A stretch of 64,000 bases of DNA, from contig JBBSXC010000004.1 in assembly GCA_038045945.1 (NCBI GenBank), forward strand, positions 240,425-304,424, given 5' to 3'. The position numbers were made by a program, and so were the translations under genes. Source of the DNA: Nanobdellota archaeon. Lineage in GTDB: Archaea > Nanobdellota > Nanobdellia > Pacearchaeales > GW2011-AR1. This document shows positions 17,594-48,905 of the stretch, one piece after another (position 1 is the first letter of the stretch; every line of letters starts with the position of its first letter). The notes under the pieces were generated by a model. That model did not search any database, was not told where the DNA came from, and saw only the letters and a program-made list of their open reading frames with translations.

Positions 17594-18211
17594 CTACTTA
17601 GTAAGAATTATTAAACCAGCCTCTATCAAACCAGCAACAATTAACAAAGGAATAACAAAACGCAAAAAAACAAGAACTGACTGAATAAAAATGTGCTTAA
17701 AATTCTTCCTACCATCATGAGTAAAAAAAGAAAAACCAACCCTCACACCAAGGCTAGAAGAAATAAAGATTGCTGGAAGCTCAAAAATGCCATGAGGCAA
17801 GAGTCTCAAAAGGACTGAAGGGCCTGCTAAAGAAACAGTCTTACCAGCAACAAAACCAAGAACATAACCATTAGCGACAGAAACAAAAATAGGAAAAAAA
17901 CCAAATGCTAAACCAGCGAAGAAACTCCAAAAAGCACTAGAAACATTATTATTAATAATAAACAAGAATAATCTCCAAAAACCAAAATCTTTGACCTGAT
18001 CAAAAAGACTGGTAAGATAAACTTGAATTTGATCAGAAAAAAAGTGAGGGTAAACAACACCAATAAAAGAAGAAAAAAAGAAAAGAAACAAAATAAACAA
18101 AAAATAGTTCTTTGATTCAACCAAAAAAGACCAAGAGCGACCGTAAGACACAAAAAACCTCTTAACAAAAGAAGAACTCTTATTACTCCTTGATAAAATA
18201 TTTTTCTTCAT
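17594..18211 (-). CDS. Stage II sporulation protein M family membrane protein
   Basis: IINN, NGYVLG, LLPHGIFELPA, PLLIVAGLIEA. Confidence 0.88.
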   Translation of the reverse strand: MKKNILSRSNKSSSFVKRFFVSYGRSWSFLVESKNYFLFILFLFFFSSFIGVVYPHFFSDQIQVYLTSLFDQVKDFGFWRLFLFIINNNVSSAFWSFFAGLAFGFFPIFVSVANGYVLGFVAGKTVSLAGPSVLLRLLPHGIFELPAIFISSSLGVRVGFSFFTHDGRKNFKHIFIQSVLVFLRFVIPLLIVAGLIEAGLIILTK

Positions 18212-19050
18212 TTGAAATACATACCAATAGCTTTAACCTTGTTTTTATACCTATTCTTAAGATAAACACCATAAGCAGCACCAGCTAAATATCCGCCAAG
18301 GTGAGCCATATTACCAATAGGGAGGGGCAGGAAATAACCAATAATAAACAAAGGCACTATAGCAACGAGTGGAAGAATAGAAAAGTTCATATTAATAGGA
18401 ATAGATAATTTTCTCATAGCCTCACTTCTGGAAAACATGGAGAAAATACAAACAAAAATATACATTGTCACAGCCAAATCAATAATATTAACAACTGAAC
18501 TATTAACAGAAAACTGATTTATAATAGCCTGAATAACAATAGCCAAAATAGGGCCACCCATAAGACTAACCTTGCTCCTAGGAGTAATAACAGACAAAAC
18601 CCCCGCAATACCAAATATTGCTCCAGAAGCCCCCATAGCAAGAACATTAGGGCTAGCAAAAACCTTAACACCAAAAACACTACTACCAAAAATGTATGAG
18701 AATAAAGCAAAAAATATTCCAGCAAAAACGCCGCTGGCTATGTAAAGCCAAAAAAATCTTTTTCTACCAACAATCATCTCTAAAAATCTTCCAACAAAGA
18801 ATAAAGAAAACATGTTAACAAACAAATGAAAAATGTTAGCATGCATAAAAACACTAGTGATAAGAGTCCAAACAAAAAAATCATTAAAAAGAAGATTAGG
18901 GCTCAGACCAATATAGCTAATAGTGTTAGAGTCATAAGAAGTAACAATTTTAACAACAAGAAAAATCAAGATGTTAACAATGACTAATAAATTAGTAATA
19001 CTCATTGATTCCAAAAAAGAAAGACGCGTCTTAGTTCTTACCAAACTCAT
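18208..19050 (-). CDS. Rhomboid intramembrane serine protease
   Basis: FMHANIFHLFVNM, GASGA, AHLGG. Confidence 0.93.
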   Translation of the reverse strand: MSLVRTKTRLSFLESMSITNLLVIVNILIFLVVKIVTSYDSNTISYIGLSPNLLFNDFFVWTLITSVFMHANIFHLFVNMFSLFFVGRFLEMIVGRKRFFWLYIASGVFAGIFFALFSYIFGSSVFGVKVFASPNVLAMGASGAIFGIAGVLSVITPRSKVSLMGGPILAIVIQAIINQFSVNSSVVNIIDLAVTMYIFVCIFSMFSRSEAMRKLSIPINMNFSILPLVAIVPLFIIGYFLPLPIGNMAHLGGYLAGAAYGVYLKNRYKNKVKAIGMYFK

Positions 19051-30913: not shown

Positions 30914-31005
30914 TTAGGTACTACAATGATGTATAAAAATGCTTAGGTAGTGTTTTTAAAACCTCTACTTAGGTACTACCTAAGATTAAGGTTTGTAGTG
31001 CCTAA
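30914..31005. promoter_or_regulatory. Cluster of TTAGGTA(C/G)T-type direct and inverted repeats in a divergent promoter region
   Basis: ttaggtactac at 30914, cttaggtagtg at 30942, palindrome cttaggtactacctaag at 30968-30984, gtagtgcctaa at 30995. Confidence 0.65.
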
Positions 31006-31131: not shown

Positions 31132-34100
31132 ATGGGGAAGACTGACTTAGTTAGAAGTGCGACCGCAGATTTGGAAAACCATAAAGAGATTTCTAAGAAT
31201 AATTTAGCACAAGTCAGACAAAAAATTAGCGATCTAAAAAACAAAGTTTTGAATCGTGAAATGAGTTACGCCCAGTATGAATGGGAACTAGCTGTAAAGC
31301 ATGGTGAACGAAACTTATCAGAATGGCACGACTTCTACTCTGAATACTTAGGGAAAGCCATAAGAATTGAAGAACAAAAAAGAAAGAAAGAAAAAATAAA
31401 AAGAACACTAGCAATGATTCTAGCATTATTCTTAGGATCTCTAATAATAATTGCAGCATTAAACTTTGCTCCAAGAATCATCGGGCTGGTAACTTTAGGT
31501 GATAACGAAAGCACAACACAAGCATTCGTAGAAAACATCGATATGCAATTCAATAATAGTAAAGAAATAACTTGGACTCCGCAAAACAAAGGACAACTAA
31601 CAGGAATAAAATTCTACGGAAATTACAATGGAAAATCATCATTCAAAATATTCTTAGACGAAAAAATAATAGTTGATAGCAAAAAACTACTTGAAACAAA
31701 AACAAACAACAAGAACGCACCAATCACAGCATTCGCTGTGGGAATTGATAATCCACAAGAAGGAACGGATTCACAATCAGCTGAAGCTGGTACTAACAGT
31801 CCACAAGAAGGAACGGAGAGTTCTACCCAAATACCTGAAGACTTAGTCAGTCTTCCCCAACAGAACTCTCCGACCTTCGGGATACCTGAAAACACCCCAT
31901 CACAAAACGCCTCAAACGGCACATCATTCTCAAACGGAGAGGGCTCTGTAACCCAAATACCTGAAGACTTAGTCGGTCTTCCCCAACAGAGCCCCTCCTT
32001 TGAAATCAGGTTTTCAGAAGAATGCACGGACAATTGTAACCTAACTGCAGAAAACTTAAAAAAAGAATCTTACAAAATAAGAGTAGAATTCGAAAACGAA
32101 ATAGAAAACAATTTGTTACTTGAACAAGCATTCTACACAATAATTCAAAGCGATGAACAAACAACAACTTCCTCTCAAACAACAAATAATCAATCAAGAG
32201 GAAGAAGCTTCAGCCTACAAGCAAGCGGATCAAACTACACCGTTTTCAGTCCTATAAACCAAACTTATTCTGGAACAAACAGGACCGTCTTCAATGTGTC
32301 TAGTGACGGGACCTTATTATCATGCGACTTATATCTTGATGCAGAAATAGGTAATAACGTTACTGGACCATACTTAGGATACACTAGGAACCTGAGAGTA
32401 CTTTACCACTTTAACAACAAATCATTATTCGGAGAAAACGAAACTTACTATTATGATTACAGTGAAAACAACAATAATGCAACAACAACAGGCTCTCCTA
32501 ACGCCTCGGTAATTGATTCTGGAAAAATTATGGGCGGATACGACTCTAATGGTGCAGCAGCCCCAGCTTACTCTTACGCTAATTCAACTAGAGGACTAAA
32601 TATTTCTAATACTAGCGGCTTCACAATAATGTTTTGGTTAAAAGCAAGAGACACAGTAAACCCTTCAAGCTCGCAAGGAATACTAGTTAGTGATGGATTC
32701 TCACCCTCCAGGCCTACTGATGGTTTCTACATTGAAGAACAAGACGCTGGAGGAAACACATACCAATTAAGATACAAACTAGGAGGGATATCTAATGAAG
32801 AAACATACACTACGGCAATTAATTCTAACTGGCATCACATAACAATAAGATATTCTGACCCGATAACAAACGGGACTAACAGTTTATTCGTTGACGGACT
32901 AAACGTTTACAACGGGACTGCAGGATATCCTAACATATCAATAAATAACAACTTAATTATTGGAACAGACCATTTATTCTCAAACACGTTAAACGGTACT
33001 ATTGACGAAGTAGCAATATGGAATGAGAGCCTAAGCGATAGCGACATCTTTACCATTAAAAGAGTTCAGTCAACACCAACAGCCTTAATATCACAAAATT
33101 CTAGCTTACAATCATTCACAAACTCTAGCATGACTATCAGAGCTCACTACGCTTGGTTTTTGTGCAGAGATAATGGCGGGGGGCCACCAGTTGAAGACTA
33201 TAACATTGCACCAGTATACTTCACCCTAGTACCTAAAGACATGCAAGTAAGAATTAACGAACCTGCCAATGGAGCTGCTTATAACAACTCATTTGTTAAT
33301 TTCAACGTTACAACAGGTGAAGACGGATGGGTATATTTCTCTCTTGATGGGGGGATAAATAATGTTTCAATGCAAAAAAATCCTAATGTTATCGGAACAG
33401 ACTTCAACTACACTAACGGATCAATAGCTGACGGACAATACCTAATGAACGTTTACTCTAACGACACTAACGGCACAAGCGACGACAGAAATAACCTAAC
33501 ATTCATAATTGACACAATTTACCCAAACATTAACTTCACTAATCCAACACCTATAAATGATACTTTACAAATAGCAAACAATTTTATTATTAATCTAAGC
33601 TCTAATGATTCTAACAACCACTCAATAATCCTTGACATTAATAACTCATTATACTTATGGTTAAGGTTTAACAATTCAGGTGACACTAACGATTATTCTT
33701 CATTTGGGCCAAGATCTCCAAGCATTAACGGAACAACATTTAGCAAAGAAAGAATTAGGGGAGGAGCCTTTGACTTTAACGGTGGTAACGACCTAATAAG
33801 AATATCCTCCTTCGAACCAATTGATCAATCAAGAACAATAAGCTTTTGGATTAAAGGAAGAACGCCAACAAAAAACGTTACCATAATAGAAAAATATAAC
33901 AGTTCTATTCCTGGGTTATACCCTTTCTCATTCAAAGGATACGCCGGACTTAACTATACTAACTTCTCAATAACTGGAACAGTTGCAGGTAACATCTCAA
34001 TAATAAGCTCTAACATTTTCGACAACCAATGGCACCAAGTAGTTGGGGTAGTAAACACTGGAGTTGTCCCAACGTCTATGGAATTATACGTTGACAGCTT

Positions 34101-37100
34101 AATCAGAGGTAACATAAGCGGAATTATTGGTTCATCTGAAAACAGCCAAGACTTATTCATAGGTAACGATGCTGTTCTTAACCAAAGCATTAACGCTAGC
34201 CTTGACGAAATAACAATATTTGCTAGAGCTCTTGGTAGCGCAGAAATTAATGCTTCTTACAACGCAAAAAACAACCAATACATAAAAAACTTCTCTTTTG
34301 AAGACGGAACATTCTACTACAAAGCTTACGCGCAAGACGCAGCAGGAAACATAAACACGAGCGAAACAAGAAAAATAACAATTGATAGTACGGCACCAAT
34401 AATTACTGTTAATCTCCCGCTCAACCAAACTTATATCACATCAACAATTCCTTTTAATTTCACAACTAACGAAAACGCTGTCTGCATTCTAAGTGTTGAT
34501 TCTGGACTAACTAATTATTCTATGCAAGCAAACGGTCAACGAGACTTTAACAGAACACTAACAAGCGTTGCTGACGGTTCTTACAACGTTTTTGCATACT
34601 GTAATGACTCTTTAGGTAATTTAAGACTTAACAGCAGCAGATGGTTCAGCGTTGACAGTAACGTTGCTCCAGCAGTAACTATCAATTTACCATTAAACAA
34701 AACTTATAACCAATCAATAGTAAACTTCAACGTCACAACTGACGAAGTAGCATCATGCTTTTACACTCTTAACAGCGGATTAACAAATTATTCTATGCAA
34801 AGAAACGGCAACACAGACTTTAACCACACTAACAGTTCTATCGCTGATGGTGCTTATTACGCAAGATTTTATTGTAACGACACTAGTAACAAAATAAATG
34901 ATTCCGCAACCCTTAACGTTTCATTCTCAATTGACTGGACAACACCTAGTATTAATTTCACTAATCCTACTCCATCGAATAATTCTTTCTTAAGACAAAA
35001 CAACATTTTTGTTAATGTATCTCACTCTGACACTCCTGGTGATTACCAAGTTGTTCTTGACTTTAACCGTTCACTTGTTGCATGGTTCAGATTTGGTAAC
35101 GAAACTGGTGAAAATCACACTCACATTCGTGATTGGAGCTCCTGGCAAAACAACGCTACTGCTAACACAACTACTCTATATAATGAATCTGGTAAGTTTG
35201 GCGGAGCTAGACAAATTAATGCTACTGAAGGTTTCATTAAAATACCTTATAATGAATCTATAAAACCATCAAACCAGTACTCTCTTAGTTTATGGCTTTA
35301 CCCTACTAGTGATCCTGGATTCTTCGCTGTTTACTCTTCTGTTTATGCTTTAAGTGTTGTTGATAACAAAATAAGAGTTGGTTGGGGTTCTGGTAGTGGA
35401 GATCAAGCAATTCTTACTGGTGCTGGAAACTTAACTATGGGTCAATGGACTCATGTTACTCTTGTTAGGTCTAACCAATCAACTATTTCTTTATTTAGAA
35501 ACGGTGTTTTAGTCGCTACTAACACAACTCTAACATCTATCACTATACCTAACTCTAACATAACATTTGGTTCTGACGGGTCTCTAGGTAACGCTTACCG
35601 TGGTCTTATTGATGAAGCTATGATTTTCCAAAGAGCTATTAACGAAACAGAAATTAAAAACTTGTACGACTCTAGAACGCAAAACTTTTCTGTTAACTTC
35701 ACAAGCCTAACAGACGGCAACTACTCAATTCAAGCTTACACTCAAGACGTAGTTGGACACATAAACAACACAGAAAAAAGAATAATAGTGCTGGACACAA
35801 CAGCACCAACAATAACGATTAACAGTCCTTTAAACCAGACGTATGGTACAAATAAAATTAATTTTAATATTACTACTAATGAGAATTCGAGTTGTTCCTA
35901 CAGCCTTAACGGTGGCGTAACAAATTACTCTATGGTTAAGAATGGTATCACTGATTTTAACAGAACCCACAGTGGATTATCTAACGGTGCTTATAATTTT
36001 TCAGCATATTGTAATGATAGTTTAATAAATTCTAGAATTGGTTCAGTATCTTTTTCTGTAGACTTCTCGCAAGTTTCTTCTTGTGGTAATCTTAATGTAC
36101 CAGGGAGAACCTATGATGTTATTAATGATATTAGTTCTGATGGCGTCTGCATAGAAATTTCCGCGAGTAATATAACTCTTAATGGCTTAGGTTATCAGAT
36201 ATTTCACTCTGAAAATCCTTCTGCTGAGCTAAAGGACTGTATAGGTATTAACATTACGGGGGCTTATAATAATATTCTTATTAAAAATACCCTCATTACT
36301 GGCGATTCAGCAATTGAGGGGACTTGTTCTAATGGGCTCGGTATCGCCGTTTCTAGCTCGCTTTCATCAAACATATCTATTATAAACAATACTATTGCTG
36401 AAGTTACAGAGTTTTCAACAGGGATTAGTATCCCTGCACATGACTATTTTATCCAGAATAACACTATCCAATTGACTCAGGGCGGAGTTGCGATTTTAGC
36501 ATATGCCGGTAATTCTTCTATATCTGGAAATATTATTGGGCCTTCAATTGGCGCTCCATTGGCGAGCTATCCTGGATTAACTGGGATAAATATTCGAGGA
36601 AATAACCATTTAATAAAAAATAATACTATCAACTTGAGAGATGACGAGGCAGTCTTGTTTAGATCTACTGGAATTAAAGTAACCAGTGGTAGCTATATAA
36701 ACATAACAAATAATACCGTGTCAAATCTCTACTATGATTATAATCCCCATCGTGCAATTGAGATAACTAATATTATTAATTCAAACATATCTGGGAATAA
36801 ACTTAGGGGGATAGTTGAGGTAGTTAACTCCTCTGATAATTTAATTGTCCATAATATCATTAATACTAGCTGGCAAAACTTTATAGTAACATTTGGAACA
36901 AATGCAAACAATTCAAATACTGAGATAAGAAGTAATATACTCCTTAGAGAGGATTCTAATAAGTCTTTTGAGATTACTAACGCTGGAAATGGGACAAAAT
37001 TTATTGATCAAAAAATTTATAATTACAGCTTTAATAAATCCGTGGGGAATTTAATTTATCTTGAAAATACCTCCTCTGGGAGTATAATGTTTTTAAGGGA

Positions 37101-38751
37101 AGTTAATGGTTCTGGTAAAAATCTCTCTTTAGAAATTCAAATTCTTAACAACACTGCCCTGATTAATTCAACAATTAATCCCGGTCTAAATAGAAGCGCA
37201 AATATAACTTTTTACAATATGCAAGGATGGGGCTTTGTTAGCCCTGTAATTATGAGGAATGGGGTAGACTGTCAAACTAGTGGATATTGCATAAACTTAA
37301 CCTCCCTCACAGCAAACATAGTAATATTCAATGTAAGTGGAGAGGGCTTATACAATCTGAGTGACACAAATGTCGGTCCATCAATATCCTTTGTATCAAA
37401 CATCTCACCGCAAACGATAACAGAAGCAGGAGTAACTAAGGCAACATTCAACTTCACAGTAAACGATGTAAATGGGTACGCAGACGTAATCATAGTAAAG
37501 GCAAATTTTACAAACGGAACAATATTAAGAAGCAACGAAACATGTGAAGCATCAGGGATAATCAACAGCACCGCAAGAAATTACAATTGCACAATAGGAA
37601 TATGGTACTTCGACTCAGCAGGAACCTGGAATGTAACTGTATACGCACGTGATTCTGTAAGTAACATAGCACAAAACACTACAACAAGCTTCTCATTAGC
37701 ACAAACAGCAGCATTCATCATATATCCAAACGGCACTACTGGAGGAACATCATTCACATTCTCTGGAATAAACCCAGGAGAAACAAACAAAACACCAACA
37801 AATAACCCACTAACACTAAACAACACGGGAAACCAACCAATAAATTCAGGAATAAGCATAAACGCAACAAACCTAGTAGGAGAAACAAATAACTTGTACT
37901 CACTATACGCAGGAAACTTCACAGTAGGAATAAACACAGGGGGCTCACCACTACTAGAATGCGGAGGAACAGGAAGTTCAAGAATGACAAGATCAGTATA
38001 CACAGAAATAATAGGAGCAACACTACCAGTAGGAAATCTAAGTGCAGGCGGAGGAGCAGCACAAGAACAACTATACATATGCCTAACAAAAGCAGGAAAC
38101 GAAATATCGGAGCAGGCATACTCCACAACAGGGCCAAGCTCAACAGGAGCATGGACAATAAAAATACTAGTAGCATTACTAACAATACCAAGAAAAAGAA
38201 AACTAAAGAAAGACAGAATGGTAAGAGCATTATCACTAATATACGAAGAATTAAGAGAAGAATACGACCAAGAAACATCAGAATTAGCAAACAAAGTACT
38301 AAAACAAGTAAAAGAAAGAACAAGACTAAACAACAAACAAATATACGAAATAACAGGAGCAAGAACAAGAATAGAAATACCAATAAACATATTCACAAAA
38401 GAAATAGGGGGACTAGAAGCAATAAGCAAATACCTAAAAGAAAACCTAAAAATGAGCTACGCAGAAATAGGAATAGCAATAAACAGAAACGAAAAGACAA
38501 TATGGAACGCATACGCAAAAGCAAGAGAAAAGAAAGCAGAACCATACATAACAGAAGAATCAAAAATAAAGATACCAATAGAAGAACTAAAGACAGAAAA
38601 ACTAACAATACTAGAAGCAATAATAACAAACCTAAAGAAACAAGGACTAAAATACGCAGAAATAAGCAGATTACTAGAAAGAGACCAAAGAAACATAAGA
38701 ACAATAGAGAAAAACGCAGAGAAGAAGATGAACGATTTTAATAAGAATTAA
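31132..38751 (+). CDS. 2539-aa surface protein: cytoplasmic N-domain, TM, 3 LamG/ConA-like domains with Ig-like repeats, beta-helix, shared ~260-aa domain, C-terminal tandem HTH
   Basis: LYHF/LWLRF/AWFRF, WHHI, G.IDEV.I(W/F) LamG motifs; INNTI/ISGN beta-helix repeats; MSYAEIG..INRNEKTIW and LKYAEISRLLERDQRNI HTHs. Confidence 0.85.
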   Translation: MGKTDLVRSATADLENHKEISKNNLAQVRQKISDLKNKVLNREMSYAQYEWELAVKHGERNLSEWHDFYSEYLGKAIRIEEQKRKKEKIKRTLAMILALFLGSLIIIAALNFAPRIIGLVTLGDNESTTQAFVENIDMQFNNSKEITWTPQNKGQLTGIKFYGNYNGKSSFKIFLDEKIIVDSKKLLETKTNNKNAPITAFAVGIDNPQEGTDSQSAEAGTNSPQEGTESSTQIPEDLVSLPQQNSPTFGIPENTPSQNASNGTSFSNGEGSVTQIPEDLVGLPQQSPSFEIRFSEECTDNCNLTAENLKKESYKIRVEFENEIENNLLLEQAFYTIIQSDEQTTTSSQTTNNQSRGRSFSLQASGSNYTVFSPINQTYSGTNRTVFNVSSDGTLLSCDLYLDAEIGNNVTGPYLGYTRNLRVLYHFNNKSLFGENETYYYDYSENNNNATTTGSPNASVIDSGKIMGGYDSNGAAAPAYSYANSTRGLNISNTSGFTIMFWLKARDTVNPSSSQGILVSDGFSPSRPTDGFYIEEQDAGGNTYQLRYKLGGISNEETYTTAINSNWHHITIRYSDPITNGTNSLFVDGLNVYNGTAGYPNISINNNLIIGTDHLFSNTLNGTIDEVAIWNESLSDSDIFTIKRVQSTPTALISQNSSLQSFTNSSMTIRAHYAWFLCRDNGGGPPVEDYNIAPVYFTLVPKDMQVRINEPANGAAYNNSFVNFNVTTGEDGWVYFSLDGGINNVSMQKNPNVIGTDFNYTNGSIADGQYLMNVYSNDTNGTSDDRNNLTFIIDTIYPNINFTNPTPINDTLQIANNFIINLSSNDSNNHSIILDINNSLYLWLRFNNSGDTNDYSSFGPRSPSINGTTFSKERIRGGAFDFNGGNDLIRISSFEPIDQSRTISFWIKGRTPTKNVTIIEKYNSSIPGLYPFSFKGYAGLNYTNFSITGTVAGNISIISSNIFDNQWHQVVGVVNTGVVPTSMELYVDSLIRGNISGIIGSSENSQDLFIGNDAVLNQSINASLDEITIFARALGSAEINASYNAKNNQYIKNFSFEDGTFYYKAYAQDAAGNINTSETRKITIDSTAPIITVNLPLNQTYITSTIPFNFTTNENAVCILSVDSGLTNYSMQANGQRDFNRTLTSVADGSYNVFAYCNDSLGNLRLNSSRWFSVDSNVAPAVTINLPLNKTYNQSIVNFNVTTDEVASCFYTLNSGLTNYSMQRNGNTDFNHTNSSIADGAYYARFYCNDTSNKINDSATLNVSFSIDWTTPSINFTNPTPSNNSFLRQNNIFVNVSHSDTPGDYQVVLDFNRSLVAWFRFGNETGENHTHIRDWSSWQNNATANTTTLYNESGKFGGARQINATEGFIKIPYNESIKPSNQYSLSLWLYPTSDPGFFAVYSSVYALSVVDNKIRVGWGSGSGDQAILTGAGNLTMGQWTHVTLVRSNQSTISLFRNGVLVATNTTLTSITIPNSNITFGSDGSLGNAYRGLIDEAMIFQRAINETEIKNLYDSRTQNFSVNFTSLTDGNYSIQAYTQDVVGHINNTEKRIIVLDTTAPTITINSPLNQTYGTNKINFNITTNENSSCSYSLNGGVTNYSMVKNGITDFNRTHSGLSNGAYNFSAYCNDSLINSRIGSVSFSVDFSQVSSCGNLNVPGRTYDVINDISSDGVCIEISASNITLNGLGYQIFHSENPSAELKDCIGINITGAYNNILIKNTLITGDSAIEGTCSNGLGIAVSSSLSSNISIINNTIAEVTEFSTGISIPAHDYFIQNNTIQLTQGGVAILAYAGNSSISGNIIGPSIGAPLASYPGLTGINIRGNNHLIKNNTINLRDDEAVLFRSTGIKVTSGSYINITNNTVSNLYYDYNPHRAIEITNIINSNISGNKLRGIVEVVNSSDNLIVHNIINTSWQNFIVTFGTNANNSNTEIRSNILLREDSNKSFEITNAGNGTKFIDQKIYNYSFNKSVGNLIYLENTSSGSIMFLREVNGSGKNLSLEIQILNNTALINSTINPGLNRSANITFYNMQGWGFVSPVIMRNGVDCQTSGYCINLTSLTANIVIFNVSGEGLYNLSDTNVGPSISFVSNISPQTITEAGVTKATFNFTVNDVNGYADVIIVKANFTNGTILRSNETCEASGIINSTARNYNCTIGIWYFDSAGTWNVTVYARDSVSNIAQNTTTSFSLAQTAAFIIYPNGTTGGTSFTFSGINPGETNKTPTNNPLTLNNTGNQPINSGISINATNLVGETNNLYSLYAGNFTVGINTGGSPLLECGGTGSSRMTRSVYTEIIGATLPVGNLSAGGGAAQEQLYICLTKAGNEISEQAYSTTGPSSTGAWTIKILVALLTIPRKRKLKKDRMVRALSLIYEELREEYDQETSELANKVLKQVKERTRLNNKQIYEITGARTRIEIPINIFTKEIGGLEAISKYLKENLKMSYAEIGIAINRNEKTIWNAYAKAREKKAEPYITEESKIKIPIEELKTEKLTILEAIITNLKKQGLKYAEISRLLERDQRNIRTIEKNAEKKMNDFNKN
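31825..31990 (+). repeat. 40-bp direct repeat (31825-31864 and 31951-31990, one mismatch) in a low-complexity linker
   Basis: acccaaatacctgaagacttagtc(a/g)gtcttccccaacaga. Confidence 0.9.
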
Positions 38752-42090: not shown

Positions 42091-43101
42091 ATGAGGAAAG
42101 AAATATTACTGGCAATAACTTTAGCAACAATACTAATAATGATCTTAGTAACGCAAAAAATAAATTTGGTAAGCGCACAAAATAGTAACTCAGTAATAAC
42201 TGGAAAAGCAGTAACCATCACTGGAAAAGCGATAAGTGGGTTTTCATCATTTGTGGACTTCGTAAAAAGTAAAATCAGCGGAAGAGCAAGCAGTCAAAGC
42301 TTTAACATAAACATAAGCGTGCCAAACACGCAACCAAGAGTAAACTTTGTAGCAACAATAAGCGACCAAAGCGTAACGGAAGCAGGACAAAAGACAGTGG
42401 CGATAAGTTTCATAGTATACGACCAAGATGGATATGAAACAATAAACGGGGCAAACGCGACAATAACAAACAGCACAGGAAGCATAAGGTACAACCAAAC
42501 ATGCCAAAAAACAAACACAATAGGAACAAAAGAACAAAACTTCACGTGCGGGATAGGAATATGGTATTTTGATAATGCAGGAGTATGGACAATAACAATA
42601 ACTGCAACAGATCAAGGAAACTTAGAAGGAACAAACAGTACAACAAACTTCACAATACTACAAACATTAGGAATAACAACGAGCCCAGAAACAATAACTT
42701 GGGCAACACTAACAGCAGGAGACAAAAACAAAACAGCAATACAACACATACAAATAAACAATACAGCAAACACGGCAGTATCAGCAGGAAACGTAAGCAT
42801 AAACGCAACAAACCTAGTAGGAGACACATACTCAAGCTACTCAATATACGCAGGAAACTTTAGCGTAGCAATACATAACACAACAAACACGAGCTCATGC
42901 GCACAAGCAACAAGCACAAGGCTAGTGCACTACAACTACACAACAATAAGCGGAGCAAACCTAAGCGTAGGAAACGTAAGCATAAACGACGGAAGAGGGC
43001 AAACAAAAATGTACGTATGCATAAGAGAATTAGGAATAGAAATATTAGAACAAAACTACACAACAAGCGGAGAAGGACCATGGATAATAAAGGTTCAATA
43101 A
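42091..43101 (+). CDS. Secreted subunit paralogue 1 (shared domain ending Y..W-x-I-K)
   Basis: Signal peptide, ITGKA repeats, CGIGIWYFDNAGVWTI, SINATNLVG, YAGNF, WIIKVQ. Confidence 0.85.
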   Translation: MRKEILLAITLATILIMILVTQKINLVSAQNSNSVITGKAVTITGKAISGFSSFVDFVKSKISGRASSQSFNINISVPNTQPRVNFVATISDQSVTEAGQKTVAISFIVYDQDGYETINGANATITNSTGSIRYNQTCQKTNTIGTKEQNFTCGIGIWYFDNAGVWTITITATDQGNLEGTNSTTNFTILQTLGITTSPETITWATLTAGDKNKTAIQHIQINNTANTAVSAGNVSINATNLVGDTYSSYSIYAGNFSVAIHNTTNTSSCAQATSTRLVHYNYTTISGANLSVGNVSINDGRGQTKMYVCIRELGIEILEQNYTTSGEGPWIIKVQ

Positions 43102-43154
43102 AACCTTTAAATTCGAGAATTCAAAGAGCAGAATTCTCTCATAATAAAAGTACA

Positions 43155-43769
43155 ATGAAAAAAAATAATTTTAGTACAATAAAAAAAATAACGGGAATAT
43201 GCTTCGCAGCAATAATCATAATCATAATCATGACGAGTCAAACAAAAGCATTCGGAATAACAAGATCAAACACAGAAAAAAATCCCCTAATGATAATGCT
43301 AGGAGAAGAAGGGCAAGCATACTTAGAATACCAAAACATGATAGGAGAAGAAGACTATAACATAAAAACAAGAATAATAAAAGGAAAAGAAATAGTAACA
43401 AACCAAAAAGAAGTAGAAAAAGAAATACAAATAAAAGCAGGAGAAGAAGGAAGGAGAATAGTTATACAAGTTGAAGCACCAAAAGAAGCAAAAATAGGAG
43501 AAGAATACGAAATAACACTAACAACAACACTAATAAAAACAAAAGAAAGCACAGGCCTAACAATGAGTACAGAAATAGAACAAACAATAAAAATAATAGT
43601 CGGAACAAAACCAGAACAACAAAAAAACGTACCGGAAATAAATAATTCGCAAGAAATAGAACAACCAAAAAAAATTAATAATTACGAAAGATTCCTAATA
43701 TTATTCATAAGCCTAATAGGAATACTAACACTAGTAAAAATACTAATAATGATAAACAGGAAAAAATGA
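43155..43769 (+). CDS. Membrane-anchored Ig-like partner 1
   Basis: Signal ending in AFG, QNMIGEEDY, P..AKIGE.YEI, C-terminal TM plus basic tail; start moved from 42897 to the ATG at 43155. Confidence 0.8.
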   Translation: MKKNNFSTIKKITGICFAAIIIIIIMTSQTKAFGITRSNTEKNPLMIMLGEEGQAYLEYQNMIGEEDYNIKTRIIKGKEIVTNQKEVEKEIQIKAGEEGRRIVIQVEAPKEAKIGEEYEITLTTTLIKTKESTGLTMSTEIEQTIKIIVGTKPEQQKNVPEINNSQEIEQPKKINNYERFLILFISLIGILTLVKILIMINRKK

Positions 43770-44317
43770 TTAAAACAAAAAAGATACAGATGATAATGTC
43801 ATCATCAATAATTCTACTATCGCTAATAACAATAGTAACATCATTTGGAGTATCAAACTTTTACTACGCAAACAACCCACTAAAAATGCAAGGGGGAGAA
43901 ACAAAAGAAGTAACACTCTTGCTACAAAACATGGTAGGAAAAGAAGACTTCCAAGCAAGAGCAACAATAGTCTCGGGCTCAGAAATAGCAAAAATAACTG
44001 ATACGGGAATATATCAAGTGCCAGCAGAAACAAAAGACGTACCAATAAAAGTAGTAATAAACACACCAAAAAAAGCAAAAGTCGGAGAAAAATACGAAAT
44101 AAAAATAGAAGTAGTAGCAACACCAAAAAATAGTGAAGGAACAATAACACTAAGTCAGGGAATAGCAACAATAATACCGATAGAAATAATAAAAAAAGAA
44201 ACATCAAGTAAAATAATAATCATAATAATAACAATAATAGCAATAATACTAGCTTGCGCAATACTATACATACTACACAGAAAAAGCTTAAAAAGAGGAG
44301 GATTCTATGAATATTAG
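43766..44317 (+). CDS. Membrane-anchored Ig-like partner 2
   Basis: SFGV, QNMVGKEDF, PKKAKVGEKYEI, C-terminal TM; ATGA-type overlap with the upstream gene. Confidence 0.8.
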   Translation: MIKTKKIQMIMSSSIILLSLITIVTSFGVSNFYYANNPLKMQGGETKEVTLLLQNMVGKEDFQARATIVSGSEIAKITDTGIYQVPAETKDVPIKVVINTPKKAKVGEKYEIKIEVVATPKNSEGTITLSQGIATIIPIEIIKKETSSKIIIIIITIIAIILACAILYILHRKSLKRGGFYEY

Positions 44318-45326
44318 AATGATGAAAAAAGGTGAAACAGAAAAAGTCATAGTACTAATAGTAATCGCAGGAATATTATTCATAGGACTAACAGGCCTGG
44401 CAACATCAGAAGAAGGATTCTTCAAATCCTTACGATCATTCCTAACAGGAAAAGCAACAAGCGGAACATTCAACCTAAACATATCAGTAGGAAACTCACC
44501 GCCAAACATAACAAACGTAGGAATAGTAAGCACACCATTTGACCCAACAGAATACAGTATAGGGGGAGGACTAACAGCAGTAACATTTAATTTCACAGTA
44601 AACGACACTGACGGATACCAAAACATAGACACAACAAGCGCAAAAGCAAACGCAACGTTCGTAAACGGATCAACAGTGTGGGTAGCAAAAAACGATAGTT
44701 GCGTTTACTCATCGGGCTCTGGTCAAACAGCAATATTCAACTGCACTCTAAAAATGTGGTATTTTAATCCAGCCGGCTTGTGGAACATAACAATATACGC
44801 ACAAGACAATAGTGGGGCAAGCGCACAAAACAGAACACAAAACTTCACATACAGCTCCCTAAAAGCATTCACACTAGCACCAGCAACATTAGCATTTAAC
44901 TCGCTAAGCGGAGGATCAACAAATACCACATCAACAAACGATCCTGTAATACTAAACAATACAGGAAACTACCATTTTGACCCGACAACAGGGAATATAA
45001 GCGTAAATGCAACAAGCCTAGTGGGAGAAACAAATAGTGCATACTCATTATACGGGGGAAACTTCACAGTAGGAACATACGGAGCTGACTCGACAGTTAA
45101 TTGCGGAAACAGCACATGGAGCCACTTCATGAGCAGATCAGTATTCGTAAATTTAACAACAACAAACTCAAGCCTACCATACGGAAACTTAAGCGCAGGC
45201 GGAGGAGCAGGGCAAGGAAACTTATTCGTATGCTTAACACTGGCTGGAGGAGAAATATCATCACAAGCGTACTCAACAAACGGACCAAACAGTCAAGGAT
45301 CATGGCAGGTAAAGGTGCAAACATGA
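44307..45326 (+). CDS. Secreted subunit paralogue 2
   Basis: LTGKATSGTFNLNISVGNSPP, CTLKMWYFNPAGLWNIT, WQVKVQT. Confidence 0.85.
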   Translation: MNIRMMKKGETEKVIVLIVIAGILFIGLTGLATSEEGFFKSLRSFLTGKATSGTFNLNISVGNSPPNITNVGIVSTPFDPTEYSIGGGLTAVTFNFTVNDTDGYQNIDTTSAKANATFVNGSTVWVAKNDSCVYSSGSGQTAIFNCTLKMWYFNPAGLWNITIYAQDNSGASAQNRTQNFTYSSLKAFTLAPATLAFNSLSGGSTNTTSTNDPVILNNTGNYHFDPTTGNISVNATSLVGETNSAYSLYGGNFTVGTYGADSTVNCGNSTWSHFMSRSVFVNLTTTNSSLPYGNLSAGGGAGQGNLFVCLTLAGGEISSQAYSTNGPNSQGSWQVKVQT

Positions 45327-45916
45327 TAAAAAACAAGAATAATAAATTACTAAGTGCATTAGTAATAATTGCAGTATTAACAATAAGCTTGGTTAGCGCC
45401 TTCGGAGTAGCAGGATACGACACGCCAGTAAAAGTAAAACCAGGAGAAAGCATAGATTTAGCATTCAGAGTGCAAAACTTAGCAGGAACAGAGGACTATT
45501 CATTAAAAGCAGAAATAAGAGGGGGAGAAGGAATAAGCGTAACAACATTAGACCCATCAACAACTTATTCATTAAGGCATGGAGAAATAGTAAGAGTAAA
45601 CTTTAGAGTAATTATGCCGGCAGAAGCGCAAGCGGGAGAAAAGTATGAAGTAAGAGCAGACTTCACAACAGGACCGCTAAACAGTGAAGGTGGAGCACCA
45701 TTAGGGATACAATCAATAATAAGCGACAAAGTAATAATACAGGTAGCAGGAGAAACAGACAATTCACAAAAGATAACACCACAACCAGAAGAAAAAACAG
45801 AATTAGCAAAAAACAATAGTAACATAGCAAAAATAGTAGTATTAGCAACACTTCTAGCAGCAGCAATACTAGCAGGATACTACGTAAGAAGAAAAAATAA
45901 AGAAAAAACAAAATAA
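45323..45916 (+). CDS. Membrane-anchored Ig-like partner 3
   Basis: AFGV, VKPGESIDLAFRVQNLAG, C-terminal TM plus RRK; start moved from 45101 to the ATG at 45323, which overlaps the upstream stop. Confidence 0.8.
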   Translation: MIKNKNNKLLSALVIIAVLTISLVSAFGVAGYDTPVKVKPGESIDLAFRVQNLAGTEDYSLKAEIRGGEGISVTTLDPSTTYSLRHGEIVRVNFRVIMPAEAQAGEKYEVRADFTTGPLNSEGGAPLGIQSIISDKVIIQVAGETDNSQKITPQPEEKTELAKNNSNIAKIVVLATLLAAAILAGYYVRRKNKEKTK

Positions 45917-45973
45917 TCAACAGTTACGTTGATTTACGAGAAGATTTAAATACATAATTATTTTAAGAAACAC

Positions 45974-46981
45974 ATGATTTTGAGTTTGAAAAAGGGTGGG
46001 GTAACAAAAATAATCCCAATGATATTAGTATCATCAATAATTCTACTATCACTACTAACAATAGTATCATCACAAACAAGTTTTTGGGAATCAATAAAAG
46101 CAGGAATAACAGGAAGAGCAACAAGCGGAACATTCAACCTAAACATATCAGTAGGAAACTCACCACCAAACATAACATATGTATCAACAATAAGCGCACA
46201 AGACATAACAGAAGCAGGACAAACAAGAGTAACATTCTATTTCACAGCAAACGACAGTGACGGATATCAAAACATCGATACTACAAGCGCAAAAGCAAAT
46301 TTCACATTCATAAACGCAACAGGACTAATAGCAACAGGAAAAAACGATAGTTGTGTGTCCCTTGGAAATATTGACTCAAAAACAATAAACTTCACATGCA
46401 CAATAAGCCTATGGTATTTTAACCCATCAGGAACAAACGCCTGGAACATAACAGCATACGTACAAGACAGCAGCTCAGCATCAGGACAAAACACCACAAC
46501 AAAATTTACTCTTAATCCAACACCAGCATTCGTAATATACCCAGCAGCATTCACATTCGGATCACTAAGCGGAGGATCAACGAACACAACATCTAACAAC
46601 GACCCATTAACAATGAACAACACAGGAAATTACGCGTTTGGACAACTAACACAAAACATAAGCGTTAATGCAACAAATCTGGTAGGAGAAACAAACAGCG
46701 CATACGCACTATACGGAGGAAACTTCACAGTAGGTGTATCAACAGGAGGGAGCCCACCAGTAGAATGCGGAGATAGTTCAGCAAGCGGATTCTTAGTAAC
46801 ACAAAGATTCGTTAATCAAACACTAGCAAGCCTACCATACGGAAACCTAAGCATAGGGTCAGGAACAGCACAAGAACAACTGTATGTGTGTTTAGCAAGA
46901 GCAGGAAACGAAATATCATCACAAGCATACTCAACAAACGGACCAAACAGTAACGGAGCATGGCAAATAAAAACGCAATGA
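45974..46981 (+). CDS. Secreted subunit paralogue 3
   Basis: ITGRATSGTFNLNISVGNSPP, CTISLWYFNP, AQEQLYVCL, WQIKTQ. Confidence 0.85.
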   Translation: MILSLKKGGVTKIIPMILVSSIILLSLLTIVSSQTSFWESIKAGITGRATSGTFNLNISVGNSPPNITYVSTISAQDITEAGQTRVTFYFTANDSDGYQNIDTTSAKANFTFINATGLIATGKNDSCVSLGNIDSKTINFTCTISLWYFNPSGTNAWNITAYVQDSSSASGQNTTTKFTLNPTPAFVIYPAAFTFGSLSGGSTNTTSNNDPLTMNNTGNYAFGQLTQNISVNATNLVGETNSAYALYGGNFTVGVSTGGSPPVECGDSSASGFLVTQRFVNQTLASLPYGNLSIGSGTAQEQLYVCLARAGNEISSQAYSTNGPNSNGAWQIKTQ

Positions 46982-47031
46982 AAATAAGTAAATTTTCAAG
47001 CATTAAACTGAGGGTAAGTTTAACACAATGA
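46976..47031 (+). promoter_or_regulatory. Intergenic promoter-like element, copy 2
   Basis: Same length as 5467-5522 and 47/56 nt identical. Confidence 0.7.
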
Positions 47032-47600
47032 TGAAAAAGAATAAACAATTATTAACAGTAACAATGATCTTAATGTTATTCATGAGCTTAATAGTAAGTG
47101 CCTTTGGAGTAGGAATATACAACGACCCAATAAAGATAAAACCAGGAGAAAGCATAGACTTAGCATTCAGACCACAAAACATGGTAGGAAACACAGACTA
47201 CACAGTAGAACCAAAATTTACATGGAGTGAAGGAATAAACGTAGAATTATTAGACAACAAAACAATATATGACTTACCATCAGGAGAATTAATAAGAGTA
47301 AACTTTAGAGTAACAGCTGATAAAAACGCAAAAATAGGGGAAATGAAAGAAGTAAGAGCAGACTTCACACCAAAAGCACAATCAGAGGGCGGAGAACCAT
47401 TAGGAATAGAAACAGGAATGGTAGCAAGCGTAAAAATATTAATATCAGAAACAACAGGAGACGACGGACAAACACCAATAGAAAAGAAAGAAGAAACAAA
47501 AGTTGTAAACTACACAAGCAAAATACTGGCACTATTAGCTCTAATAATAGTGGTAGCAGTAACAATAATCTACATAAGAAGAAAGAAAAAGAATAAATAA
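47028..47600 (+). CDS. Membrane-anchored Ig-like partner 4
   Basis: AFGV, IKPGESIDLAFRPQNMVG, C-terminal TM plus RRKKK. Confidence 0.8.
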   Translation: MMKKNKQLLTVTMILMLFMSLIVSAFGVGIYNDPIKIKPGESIDLAFRPQNMVGNTDYTVEPKFTWSEGINVELLDNKTIYDLPSGELIRVNFRVTADKNAKIGEMKEVRADFTPKAQSEGGEPLGIETGMVASVKILISETTGDDGQTPIEKKEETKVVNYTSKILALLALIIVVAVTIIYIRRKKKNK

Positions 47601-47646: not shown

Positions 47647-47886
47647 ATGGAAACAAGTATAATCAAAGTAACAGACAAGGGACAAATATCAATACCTCGA
47701 AGTATGAGACAATCTCTCAAAATAGAAATGGGTGATAATTTACTAATCACCAACAGCGAAGGTAAAATAATAATAAAAAAAATAGTTGATGATGATTTCA
47801 AAGATATACTAAAAATTAGCGAAGAATCACTTAAAGAGGTTTGGGATAATAAAGAAGATGAAATTTGGAATGAATATCTAAAATGA
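47647..47886 (+). CDS. AbrB/MazE/SpoVT-family antitoxin
   Basis: KVTDKGQISIPRSMRQSLKIEMGD plus an acidic tail (WDNKEDEIW). Confidence 0.9.
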   Translation: METSIIKVTDKGQISIPRSMRQSLKIEMGDNLLITNSEGKIIIKKIVDDDFKDILKISEESLKEVWDNKEDEIWNEYLK

Positions 47887-48218
47887 TTGTTAAACAAAGA
47901 GATTTAGTCCTTGTTTCATACCCTTTTTCTGATGTAGAATTATCAAAAGTTAGGCCTGCAATAGTAATATCAAACGACGACTTTAACAGAGATTGTCCAG
48001 ATTGCTTGTTAGTTCCACTTACATCGGTTTTAAAAAATGCTTATTGTACACTAGAAATTCACCAAGAAGATCTTGAATCCGGAAAATTATTAAAGCCTAG
48101 CAAAGTTAGAGCAGGAAAATTCTTTACTATGAATCAGCAATCAATAATGATGAATATTGGAAAAGTAAAACAAGAATTTTTTACAAAACTTAAAAAAGAA
48201 GTTATCAAAGTATTTTAG
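47883..48218 (+). CDS. PemK/MazF-family toxin
   Basis: QRDLVLVSYPFSD....KVRPAIVISND...VPLTS; overlaps the antitoxin stop codon. Confidence 0.9.
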   Translation: MIVKQRDLVLVSYPFSDVELSKVRPAIVISNDDFNRDCPDCLLVPLTSVLKNAYCTLEIHQEDLESGKLLKPSKVRAGKFFTMNQQSIMMNIGKVKQEFFTKLKKEVIKVF

Positions 48219-48260: not shown

Positions 48261-48905
48261 ATGCTCAAAGTAGACAACCAAACACTAGTACTAAACGAAT
48301 TCTTCAAAACAAAAAAAGGCGAAAAAGGATTACAACTAAGAGAACTAGGGAGAAAAATAGGATTAGCACCAACATCAGTAAAAAAATACTTAGAAGAACT
48401 AGAAAAAGAAGGAATAATAATCAGAGAAAAAAAAGAAAAATACCCATTATACTACCCAAACACAAAAAACCAACAATACCTAAGACTAAAAAATTTACAC
48501 ATAATAAGAACGATACACGAATGTGGAATGATAGAACACATAGAAAAAACAACAAAACCAACAATAATAGTACTAGCGGGAATAAACTTTGAAGAAGAAT
48601 CAAAAGAGATAAAACTATACATAAGAGGAAAAGCAGAAAACCTCAAACTAGAAGAATATGAAAAAGGAATAAACACAAAAATAATACCGGTAATAAGCAA
48701 AGACTTCAAAGAATTAAGCCCTAGCGAAGAAAAAGAACTAATAAACGGAATAGTAATAAAAGGAATAATAGAAATAAACAGTAGAGAAGAACAAAAAGAT
48801 AGCCTAAAGGTAACAAGCGAAAAAGCAAAAGGGCCATTAGATGAAGAAGATGAAGGATACTACACAAGAACACTAATAAAAAGTCCAGAAAACCATATCA
48901 ACTGA
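48261..48905 (+). CDS. wHTH plus degenerate minimal-nucleotidyltransferase-like protein
   Basis: LRELGRKIGLAPTSVKKYLEELEKEGII wHTH; IIVLAGINFEEESKEIKL lies where FGS..DxD is expected; palindrome tgtaata..tattaca at 48241-48258. Confidence 0.6.
   Translation: MLKVDNQTLVLNEFFKTKKGEKGLQLRELGRKIGLAPTSVKKYLEELEKEGIIIREKKEKYPLYYPNTKNQQYLRLKNLHIIRTIHECGMIEHIEKTTKPTIIVLAGINFEEESKEIKLYIRGKAENLKLEEYEKGINTKIIPVISKDFKELSPSEEKELINGIVIKGIIEINSREEQKDSLKVTSEKAKGPLDEEDEGYYTRTLIKSPENHIN
48798..48824 (+). repeat. Dispersed ~25-bp repeat, in-frame copy
   Basis: gatagcctaaaggtaacaagcgaaaaa. Confidence 0.6.

Follow-up and report, generated by a model that had tools for sequence, protein, structure and literature searches.

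A conserved tandem helix-turn-helix tail on a giant adhesin-like protein of a Pacearchaeota-type DPANN archaeon: a candidate membrane-tethered transcription regulator

Introduction

Regulators of the classic ToxR, TcpP and CadC type carry an N-terminal winged-helix domain and cross the membrane in one span. The RseA-sigmaE and RsiW-sigmaW systems depend on release through intramembrane proteolysis, and in Notch, SREBP and ATF6 a large receptor part on the extracellular or luminal side is combined with a TM, basic residues next to the membrane and a transcription module in the cytoplasm. Transmembrane transcription regulators, the class to which ToxR, TcpP and CadC belong, have been reported in archaea too (PMC10269533); as presented there, they have in common a DNA-binding domain and at least one TM in a single polypeptide, by which a domain outside the cell is coupled to DNA binding in the cytoplasm. 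The main text of that paper makes no mention of DPANN, Pacearchaeota, Nanoarchaeota or Sigma70.

Here, we describe a giant gene in a window of 64,000 nucleotides (the whole stretch of archaeal DNA that was analysed) whose product, as proposed below, would show the same coupling of an outside domain to cytoplasmic DNA binding. In contrast to ToxR, TcpP and CadC, the presumed DNA-binding part of this protein is C-terminal and consists of a tandem r4-type HTH, and the protein has two spans (the second putative), a second conserved cytoplasmic domain and an adhesin-like ectodomain of more than 2000 aa. The tail resembles ECF sigma factors in its region-4 HTH (Z 8.2-8.6 to region 4 of SigE, SigW, SigL and SigH), and the N-terminal cytoplasmic helical domain followed by a TM and an outside domain resembles an anti-sigma factor. 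However, ECF sigma and anti-sigma factors are two bacterial proteins, whereas the giant protein is one archaeal polypeptide in which no region 2 was found, and archaea are not known to have sigma factors. The likeness to Notch, SREBP and ATF6 is an analogy of layout and not homology. Archaeal factors of the Tfx type (PDB 8hno/8hnp) give the best structural match of the second HTH unit, but Tfx is soluble with one HTH while the tail is a membrane-linked tandem that stays below the cut-off of TIGR00721. Standalone tandem-HTH proteins of ~180 aa in the class share homology with the tail along its full length (profile positions 3-152) and differ from it in being soluble, with neither anchor nor adhesin.

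Results

The gene is an open reading frame that runs uninterrupted over 2539 aa and comprises the following parts.

31132..38751, + strand: whole gene, 2539 aa (P0001); open reading frame whose architecture recurs in relatives
31132..31404, + strand: N-terminal helical, charged, presumably cytoplasmic domain of ~90 aa (Alignment A4)
31405..31461, + strand: TM1, signal-anchor, aa 92-110; Kyte-Doolittle value of 2.67 in a 19-residue window, the protein's maximum
31462..37308, + strand: variable, sequon-rich ectodomain with 3x Laminin_G_3, 3x Big_13 and a beta-helix-like stretch (Pfam)
37309..38163, + strand: two membrane-proximal beta-sandwich 'stalk' domains, ending G-A-W-T-I-K (Alignment A2, AF2)
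38164..38190, + strand: short hydrophobic stretch ILVALLTIP (aa 2345-2353), putative second span or stop-transfer (hydropathy)
38191..38211, + strand: polybasic cluster RKRKLKK, directly behind the hydrophobic stretch (sequence)
38212..38373, + strand: helical linker with homology to the N-terminal portion of the ~180-aa standalone proteins (A1 profile, AF2)
38374..38532, + strand: HTH unit 1, a short strand and three helices (AF2 pLDDT 87-96, Pfam Sigma70_r4_2)
38569..38745, + strand: HTH unit 2 (AF2, VIA-align)

The ectodomain belongs to both Pfam families listed, with 173 bits for Laminin_G_3 (three stretches; gathering cut-off 27.6) and 62.7 bits for Big_13 (three stretches; gathering cut-off 27). 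It contains 136 N-x-S/T sequons (aa 116-2340; shuffle mean 58), most of them within 31462..37308. The third-position composition of the variable ectodomain differs from that of the remaining + strand genes, and the giant gene as a whole is a compositional mosaic. The stalk domains (AF2 pLDDT 75-93) recur in three small paralogues that are 39-50% identical to the last ~280 ectodomain residues (A2) and that stop at W-x-(I/V)-K-x-Q, as a sequence-only reading of this DNA had noticed.

42091..43101, + strand: small paralogue 1 of the stalk domains, 336 aa, with neither anchor nor tail; ends GPWIIKVQ*
44307..45326, + strand: small paralogue 2 of the stalk domains, 339 aa; ends GSWQVKVQT*
45974..46981, + strand: small paralogue 3 of the stalk domains, 335 aa; ends GAWQIKTQ*

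After its stalk the giant protein runs on as WTIK-ILVALLTIP-RKRKLKK, the W codon lying at 38152-38154. An adhesin gene could have become joined to a separate HTH gene at this point through loss of a stop, a frameshift or a chimeric assembly, and the composition of the DNA gives this reading some footing: the gene is mosaic, and in T-poor DNA several frames can escape stops by chance. Over 38182-38631 the share of T at third codon positions is 0.00, and a second + frame is likewise open across the junction and tail (37959..38741) because the stretch is very T-poor. The openness of the tail frame is thus by itself weak proof, and the evidence for a coding tail is its conservation in relatives. 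At 13 of 16 relatives' loci the stalk, hydrophobic stretch, polybasic cluster and tail are in one frame, while two others keep a polybasic remnant at a contig edge and one is uninformative. The stalk adjoining the junction is conserved at these loci, no stop follows W-x-I-K in the relatives, and no conserved Met marks the tail start at the 16 loci. The in-frame junction is spread over many genera and families, which argues against an artefact.

The sequence-only reading had also asked for a check of 38150-38230 for an assembly artefact or lost stop, and assembled contigs were used for this purpose. Logan contigs from two sequencing runs (4970 nt) and from a third run (515 nt) cross this interval with 0 differences, and a fourth, of 151 nt and from another study, spans it ungapped with 10 substitutions, of which the five that were itemised give no stop codon. 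Independent contigs thus bridge the junction free of indels, and an artefact is scarcely credible. The fusion of an adhesin ectodomain to an HTH tail, as first read from this gene, is confirmed at the sequence level as genuine and conserved.

The same fusion, which was to be sought in homologues, belongs to a large family. The tail is present in 15 of the 61 genomes of the order (source genome included), and its profile retrieves 2226 protein clusters at E<=1e-3 and 919 at <=1e-30, with the module mostly at the C-terminus and in proteins of up to 5919 aa. Of the best 150 representatives of the family, 88 show both the junction and the polybasic cluster, and their C-terminus lies a median of 187 aa beyond the junction. 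Current database labels for the family are 'DUF2341 domain-containing protein', 'sigma24 family protein' and 'hypothetical protein', and the architecture was not found described in full-text literature searches of journals outside subscription.

The tail had been read as two sigma70-r4/LuxR-like HTH repeats, to be abandoned if the repeat did not fold as an HTH. The two repeats align over 48 aa with 38% identity (E 0.001). Against Pfam Sigma70_r4_2 (PF08281; cut-off 25.7) the tail by itself reaches 28.4 bits in two stretches, while the whole protein, at 19.7 bits, is below that cut-off. In the AF2 model both units fold as HTHs with a pLDDT of 87-96, and the linker forms helices at low pLDDT (57-68). 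HTH unit 2 was superposed by VIA-align on 8hno_A, an archaeal Tfx-like factor (Z 10.1, rmsd 1.0 A, 52 aa, 31% identity), on sigma-28 region 4 (1rp3, Z 9.9), on DesR (4ldz, Z 9.3) and on 1je8, which was solved on DNA (Z 7.6). Superpositions of rmsd 1.0-2.3 A over 49-52 aa place it among the r4/LuxR/GerE-type three-helix HTHs; the VIA-align match list is filled by unit 2 only, and the fold of unit 1 comes from AF2 and Pfam. The nearest folds are DNA-binding domains, several of them solved on DNA. Foldseek of the tail model against the PDB gave no match at E<=0.001, and a PDB sequence search with the tail gave a best E of only 0.05. As predicted by these models, the tail is of HTH fold.

Two narrower assignments were rejected. 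As a sigma-70 family sigma factor the tail scores 17.5 and 18.6 bits against a cut-off of 42.9 (TIGR02937), with only the region-4 part matched and no region 2 found in the tail by this profile, and as a member of the Tfx family (TIGR00721) it scores 15.2 bits against 60.25.

Standalone proteins of ~180 aa match the A1 profile with E down to 1e-52, and outside the order 144 of the 150 matches listed cover its positions 3-152 in open frames of <=363 aa. At all 14 standalone loci inspected there is no anchor or adhesin upstream and the neighbours are unrelated, and against Sigma70_r4_2 the standalone relatives are borderline like the tail (26.5-26.8 bits). Judged by this match, a soluble tandem-HTH protein of ~180 aa has been captured whole as the tail, a relation recognised here for the first time. 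This protein was found standalone in most of the class and only fused in this order, and no soluble copy was found in the source genome, only the fused one. On a weakly resolved FastTree tree with rule-based labels for fused and standalone forms (6 rows unlabelled), the label has to switch 11 times, 8 or more of these switches being forced, whereas shuffled labels require 49.5. The tree therefore does not show that the capture happened once and cleanly.

The N-terminal TM behind a domain of ~90 aa, also noted from the sequence, corresponds to TM1. For 42 of the 51 long family members that start with M, the first strongly hydrophobic window begins at aa 86-107, and the domain before it has the family consensus MGRTR...ISYxxYxExL.KK..GRT..EWI.YYD.YI..C. 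Its profile (A4) matches 12 of the 61 genomes of the order, of which 10 also have the tail, and the two are in one open frame in 6/6 complete ORFs. This presumably cytoplasmic domain and the tail thus accompany each other in one ORF, an association newly recognised here. No Pfam family was found for it (24 N-domains scanned; scattered coiled-coil noise only), and the N-terminal 120 aa gave no lead against the Protein Atlas (top score 0.83).

The 1:1 association in complete ORFs suits a different use of the tail, as a structural or interaction module that ties the adhesin to the nucleoid, to its own N-domain or to another partner. Sigma region 4 binds anti-sigma domains, and a cytoplasmic N-domain, a TM and an outside domain resemble the layout of an anti-sigma factor. 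Such a module seems improbable to us, as soluble homologues with the same HTHs occur in the absence of a membrane partner domain, the N-domain has no detectable family and the nearest folds of the tail are DNA-binding.

Both ends of the protein look cytoplasmic, in agreement with the sequence-only reading. There is one sequon in the N-domain and none in the tail, against the 136 outside; in 50 other long family members the median per 100 aa is 4.5 in the ectodomain and 0.5 in the tail. The N-domain and tail are K/R/D/E-rich, and the polybasic cluster fits the same orientation. Such compositional signs point to an in/out topology, and the second membrane span is putative. The earlier caution over the short second hydrophobic stretch was justified: its Kyte-Doolittle value reaches just 1.15 over 19 residues (2.33 over 11), the run beyond the K is no longer than 9 residues, and the AF2 model has no helix at the junction (pLDDT <50). 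Judged by eye, ordinary C-terminal anchors encoded in the window run to 18-21 hydrophobic residues. The segment is unusually short throughout the family, frequently with Pro as its last residue; in 76 of 86 members measured, 11-16 aa separate the conserved W from the polybasic cluster (mode 12).

Motif, hydrophobic stretch and basic cluster give the junction a tripartite look, and a pacearchaeosortase is encoded in the source genome (NF033505, 153 bits, cut-off 80; TIGR04178 also) as in 57/61 genomes of the order. The junction could then be a sortase-type signal and the tail a leftover that is degraded or reports processing. Known sorting signals lie at the extreme C-terminus, however, whereas 179 residues, aa 2361-2539, follow the basic cluster here, and NCBIfam CTERM models had no match to the junction at E<=10; an archaeosortase/exosortase C-terminal sorting signal was rejected on these grounds, and we hold the sortase reading to be very improbable. 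There is no specific co-occurrence of sortase and tail because the former is near-universal and the latter is in 15/61 genomes. Exosortase_EpsH (PF09721) had no match in the genome, and the control matched in only 1/14 genomes.

Two further features of the window concern possible targets and processing of the tail.

30914..31005, no strand assigned: five TTAGG(T/C)A(C/G)T copies in both orientations, a candidate operator only, 127-218 nt upstream of the ATG
18208..19050, - strand: rhomboid protease gene, the genome's only one, candidate processing enzyme (PF01694, 77.6 bits)

The TTAGGTA array is one of 29 loci with >=5 copies of a 9-mer in 100 nt, and exact 7-mer clusters of >=4 copies are not rare either (~29 loci). 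The genome count of the array motif (5 of 16) is a circular figure because the motif was defined from this region, and the upstream regions of 9 relatives' genes share no motif.

Regulated proteolysis after the manner of Notch, SREBP or anti-sigma factors, in which a cut in or near the short hydrophobic segment frees the tail, is a variant of the tethered-regulator explanation that was judged separately. Engagement or shedding of the ectodomain would precede the cut, and the freed tail would regulate genes as its soluble homologues do. This is consistent with a tail that equals a complete soluble protein of the class, with the lack of a soluble copy in the genome, with the conserved shortness and frequent Pro end of the hydrophobic segment, and with one rhomboid gene (inside the window) and one S2P metalloprotease gene (contig C4, 63205-64146) in the genome. 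Genes for both proteases are also found in 14/14 control genomes, so that their presence says little about tail release, and no cleavage motif was identified. We consider release possible but doubtful.

Discussion

The two-pass anatomy and the captured HTH tail together lead us to regard the giant protein as a probable membrane-tethered transcription regulator, in which the adhesin ectodomain controls a cytoplasmic DNA-binding tail. By the definition given in PMC10269533, a predicted DNA-binding domain and at least one predicted TM region in one protein, it belongs to the transmembrane transcription regulators through its HTH and TM1. That the second segment spans the membrane, that the tail binds DNA and that this binding is coupled to the ectodomain is inferred. 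In this Pacearchaeota-type DPANN archaeon the protein would cross the membrane twice, with a ~90-aa cytoplasmic N-domain, a signal-anchor and a ~2230-aa, presumably glycosylated, adhesin-like ectodomain whose last part is formed by two stalk domains. From there a short hydrophobic stop-transfer segment and the polybasic cluster would lead to a cytoplasmic tail of ~180 aa, a tandem sigma70-r4/LuxR/Tfx-type HTH protein of a kind widespread in the class. The tail would be kept at the membrane, and how far it can reach DNA would depend on what happens to the ectodomain, whether binding, shedding or degradation. In a very small cell the tail may feasibly work from its tether; otherwise it may do so once proteolysis has released it. 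The overall interpretation of the sequence-only reading, a one-component contact sensor or an autoregulator released by proteolysis, is thus partly supported.

DPANN archaea live attached to host cells, and a Notch-like contact switch in an episymbiotic archaeon may be imagined, although as a whole this is speculative and improbable. The adhesin would bind the host, and force or shedding would expose the short membrane segment to an intramembrane protease. The tail, masked in cis by the co-inherited anti-sigma-like N-domain until freed, would then reprogram transcription for the attached state as the cell's only copy of a class-wide factor.

With its C-terminal tandem r4 HTH, two presumed cytoplasmic ends and giant ectodomain, the probable regulator described here is an unusual addition to the membrane-tethered regulators. 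The family, which amounts to hundreds to thousands of metagenome clusters, ties the most variable host-facing proteins to a DNA-binding module, and in this lineage the fused module appears to have replaced the free-standing factor. The arrangement could let the cell convert contact on the outside into gene regulation, and it offers a testable candidate for contact-dependent gene regulation in organisms with few recognisable signalling systems.

Continuity of the fused gene

The window is archaeal, as shown by the Alba and tRNA-intron endonuclease genes that adjoin the locus, and it belongs to a genome of 847 kb (completeness 93%). The adhesin-like giant protein carries Laminin_G_3 (three stretches, 173 bits) and Big_13 (three stretches, 62.7 bits) in Pfam searches, and its ectodomain closes with a stalk of two membrane-proximal beta-sandwich domains ending in W-T-I-K. 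A hydrophobic run and a polybasic cluster follow, then a helical linker and two repeats with a mutual identity of 38%, which together form the tail.

31132..38751, + strand: giant gene, 2539 aa
38164-38190, + strand: hydrophobic run ILVALLTIP, directly after W-T-I-K
38191-38211, + strand: polybasic cluster RKRKLKK, after ILVALLTIP
42091-43101, + strand: small stalk paralogue 1, downstream of the giant gene
44307-45326, + strand: small stalk paralogue 2, downstream of the giant gene
45974-46981, + strand: small stalk paralogue 3, downstream of the giant gene

The three small paralogues are signal-peptide proteins of 335-339 aa that align at 39-50% identity with the giant protein over the final ~280 residues of its ectodomain. 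They end in W-x-(I/V)-K-x-Q while the giant protein continues, exactly as the sequence-only reading had noted. The open frame at the tail carries little weight in itself, because T is absent from every third codon position in the last 600 nt of the gene and a second plus-strand frame is also open across its end. Tail matches were found in 15 of the 61 genomes of the order (this genome counted), mostly within open frames of 600-4533 aa. When 16 tail-positive loci of relatives within the order were inspected, 13 held the conserved stalk end (...AQE.LY.C...Q.YST...G.W.I[KR]), 8-13 hydrophobic residues, a K/R run and the tail in one frame; in two others the contig begins within the polybasic run, and the last was uninformative. 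No conserved Met marks the tail start in the relatives' loci examined. Clustered at 50% identity, the proteins matched by a tail profile formed 2226 clusters with E<=1e-3, of which 919 reached <=1e-30; among the best 150 the junction was present in 88, 66 of these being >=500 aa, and the median distance from junction to C-terminus was 187 aa. An assembly artefact or lost stop at 38150-38230, which had been raised as a concern, was checked with Logan contigs: those of sequencing runs X1, X2 and X3 span the junction with 0 differences (X1 and X2 being possibly the source runs of the assembly), and a 151-nt contig of X5, from a different study, spans it ungapped with 10 substitutions. Its five itemised substitutions include K>T, a silent L, T>S and one further change, with no stop. 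Given the same in-frame junction in relatives and these gap-free bridging contigs, it is exceedingly improbable that the fusion is an artefact.

The tail as a helix-turn-helix module

The tail alone matched Pfam Sigma70_r4_2 in two stretches at 28.4 bits (cut-off 25.7), and the whole giant protein scored 19.7 bits, below that cut-off. An AF2 model built from an alignment of 19 tails reached pLDDT 87-96 for tail residues 61-180, with a short strand and then three helices in each repeat. In VIA-align comparisons HTH unit 2 came closest to 8hno, a Tfx-like factor from archaea (52 aa superposed at rmsd 1.0 A, Z 10.1), followed by sigma-28 region 4 (Z 9.9) and DesR (Z 9.3). Region 4 of many ECF sigma factors scored Z 8-8.6, and the DNA-bound form of NarL Z 7.6. 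Foldseek gave no match for the tail at E<=0.001, and the best E in a PDB sequence search was only 0.05. With this fold evidence, the comparative loci and the bridging contigs, neither of the outcomes that the sequence-only reading had named against itself was seen, namely a stop after WTIKI with a separate HTH gene, or a repeat that does not fold as an HTH.

Identity as a sigma factor was rejected: TIGR02937 gave 17.5-18.6 bits against 42.9, and the tail is not a sigma factor because region 2 was not found. At three loci of relatives (L004, L018, L019) the C-terminus carries the entire linker and double-HTH module twice in tandem, and so has four HTH units.

Membrane topology and the two ends

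On the proposed cytoplasmic tail held by a second anchor, the observations point both ways. The polybasic cluster directly adjoins the hydrophobic run, which favours a cytoplasmic tail, and the tail is cytoplasm-like in composition (K+R 21% and D+E 16%; the ectodomain has 5% and 8%). N-x-S/T sequons number 136 in the ectodomain (6.1 per 100 aa, where shuffling gives a mean of 58), one in the N-domain, the ~90 aa before the first TM, and none in the tail; across 50 other long members the medians per 100 aa are 4.5 for ectodomain and 0.5 for tail. Against a span, the run has only 9 residues (KD-19 1.15, KD-11 2.33), which bears out the earlier caution on its shortness, and the junction is unstructured in AF2 (pLDDT <50). 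Ordinary C-terminal anchors within the window have 18-21 hydrophobic residues, judged by eye. In 76 of the 86 family members measured, 11-16 aa (mode 12) separate W from the polybasic cluster, and one may speculate that this conserved shortness serves a function, such as making the run a protease substrate.

At the other end, the first strongly hydrophobic window lies at aa 86-107 in 42 of the 51 family members that are >=1000 aa and begin with M. Ahead of it lies the N-domain, which is helical, charged and conserved. Its profile matched 12 of the 61 genomes of the order, ten of which also have the tail, and both lie in one frame in all six complete ORFs (this genome, three in G021, and the relatives G036 and G030); two matches are on fragments. 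Four genomes from two other families have the tail but gave no N-domain match at E<=1e-3, and the N-domain has neither a Pfam family nor an Atlas lead. Its layout is like that of anti-sigma factors, in which a cytoplasmic helical domain is followed by one TM and then an outside domain.

Origin of the tail

In the phylum sample, whose 301 genomes all belong to the same class, the tail module occurred in 157; G303 and G304, both flagged unpublished, enter this tally and no other claim. Among the 150 matches listed (the sample holds 202 further ones), 144 lie in open frames <=363 aa and six in frames >1000 aa, five of them in the window's family and one in G244. All 14 short loci examined are free-standing frames of ~170-200 aa, matched end to end by the profile, with no anchor or upstream adhesin and with unrelated neighbours. 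No free-standing copy was seen within the order in the tail search of 61 genomes and the 16 loci inspected, and this genome has the fused copy only. Since short standalone frames occur elsewhere in the class and only fused ones were seen in the order, we take the tail to be a complete copy of a soluble tandem-HTH protein, captured behind a putative membrane anchor. In a FastTree phylogeny of poor resolution, fused and standalone labels needed 11 changes against 49.5 when shuffled, indicating strong clustering. Fused forms are not one clade (at least 8 changes forced, on the same poorly resolved tree with rule-based labels), and we do not claim a single capture because the labels are rule-based.

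Regulation, release or sorting

Two genes are candidates for processing at the junction.

18208-19050, inside the window: rhomboid gene, one in the genome
47341-47895 of contig C4, outside the window, - strand: pacearchaeosortase gene (NF033505, 153 bits, cut-off 80)

Proteolytic release of the tail, a sub-variant of a tethered regulator, is a doubtful prospect: the genome has the rhomboid gene and one S2P gene, but both occur in all control genomes and so do not discriminate. That the junction is a sortase signal agrees with the encoded pacearchaeosortase, yet this enzyme is in 57 of the 61 genomes of the order, too widespread to discriminate, and CTERM sorting-signal models had no match at the junction, leaving a sortase signal highly unlikely. 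A structural or interaction role for the tail is somewhat less unlikely than that. As protease and sortase presence does not discriminate and no CTERM match was found, we prefer the reading that the giant protein is probably a membrane-tethered putative transcription regulator coupled to its ectodomain.

Neighbouring genes and base composition

Stalk-domain paralogues alternate at 42091-47600 with small proteins having a signal peptide, a C-terminal TM and a polybasic anchor.

43766-44317: small anchored protein
47028-47600: small anchored protein
ends of frames 42897-43769 and 45116-45916: small anchored proteins

No gene of this cluster has a Pfam family, and together they may form an operon for a surface structure related to the stalk of the giant protein. 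Several small window proteins end in an 18-21-aa TM and RRKK, with sub-threshold matches to Loki-, Heimdall- and LPXTG-type CTERM models. Further on lie genes for a MazF/PemK-like toxin (47883-48218, 53 bits) and a winged-helix regulator (48261-48905), and a second giant ORF (49684-64000, >4772 aa) that extends past the window end and has a different N-terminus; a search of the genome found no tail or N-domain match in it.

Upstream of the ATG of the giant gene, between it and a divergent class-II tRNA synthetase gene, five TTAGG(T/C)A(C/G)T copies lie in both orientations within 92 bp (30914-31005). They make up five of 16 genome-wide matches to an 11-nt degenerate word, a circular count as the word was defined here, and clusters of >=5 copies of a 9-mer in 100 nt occur at 29 loci, this array among them; no counterpart was found upstream in nine relatives.

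Strand asymmetry is very strong throughout the window and in each of the genome's 7 contigs, where one strand is A-rich and T-poor over the full length (AT skew magnitude 0.17-0.39 per contig), and the sign does not switch within C3 (252 kb) or C4 (304 kb). Third codon positions track the DNA strand rather than the gene: on C4, plus genes have A3 0.54 and T3 0.18 and minus genes A3 0.23 and T3 0.51, other contigs being alike. A literature search found no report of such asymmetry in DPANN. The giant gene itself is a compositional mosaic, with T3 ~0.5 at 34.9-37.2 kb, resembling a minus-strand gene, and A3 0.5-0.84 and T3 0-0.18 in its final 1450 nt (stalk and tail). This mosaic, and the switch near 37280 where the conserved stalk domains begin, suggest that the ectodomain part was recently recombined or inverted.

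Relation to known regulators

Transmembrane transcription regulators form a recognised class with archaeal cases reported, which PMC10269533 defines by a DNA-binding domain and a TM region. In full-text literature searches and passages of PMC11537232 we found no description of a C-terminal tandem r4 HTH tail, two cytoplasmic ends in such a protein, a giant adhesin ectodomain on such a regulator, capture of a class-wide soluble factor as origin, or restriction to a Pacearchaeota-type order, and in these features the protein would be new relative to known regulators. Public databases already contain proteins of this architecture under uninformative names. Under the definition given in PMC10269533, the giant protein, with its predicted DNA-binding domain, is a transmembrane transcription regulator.
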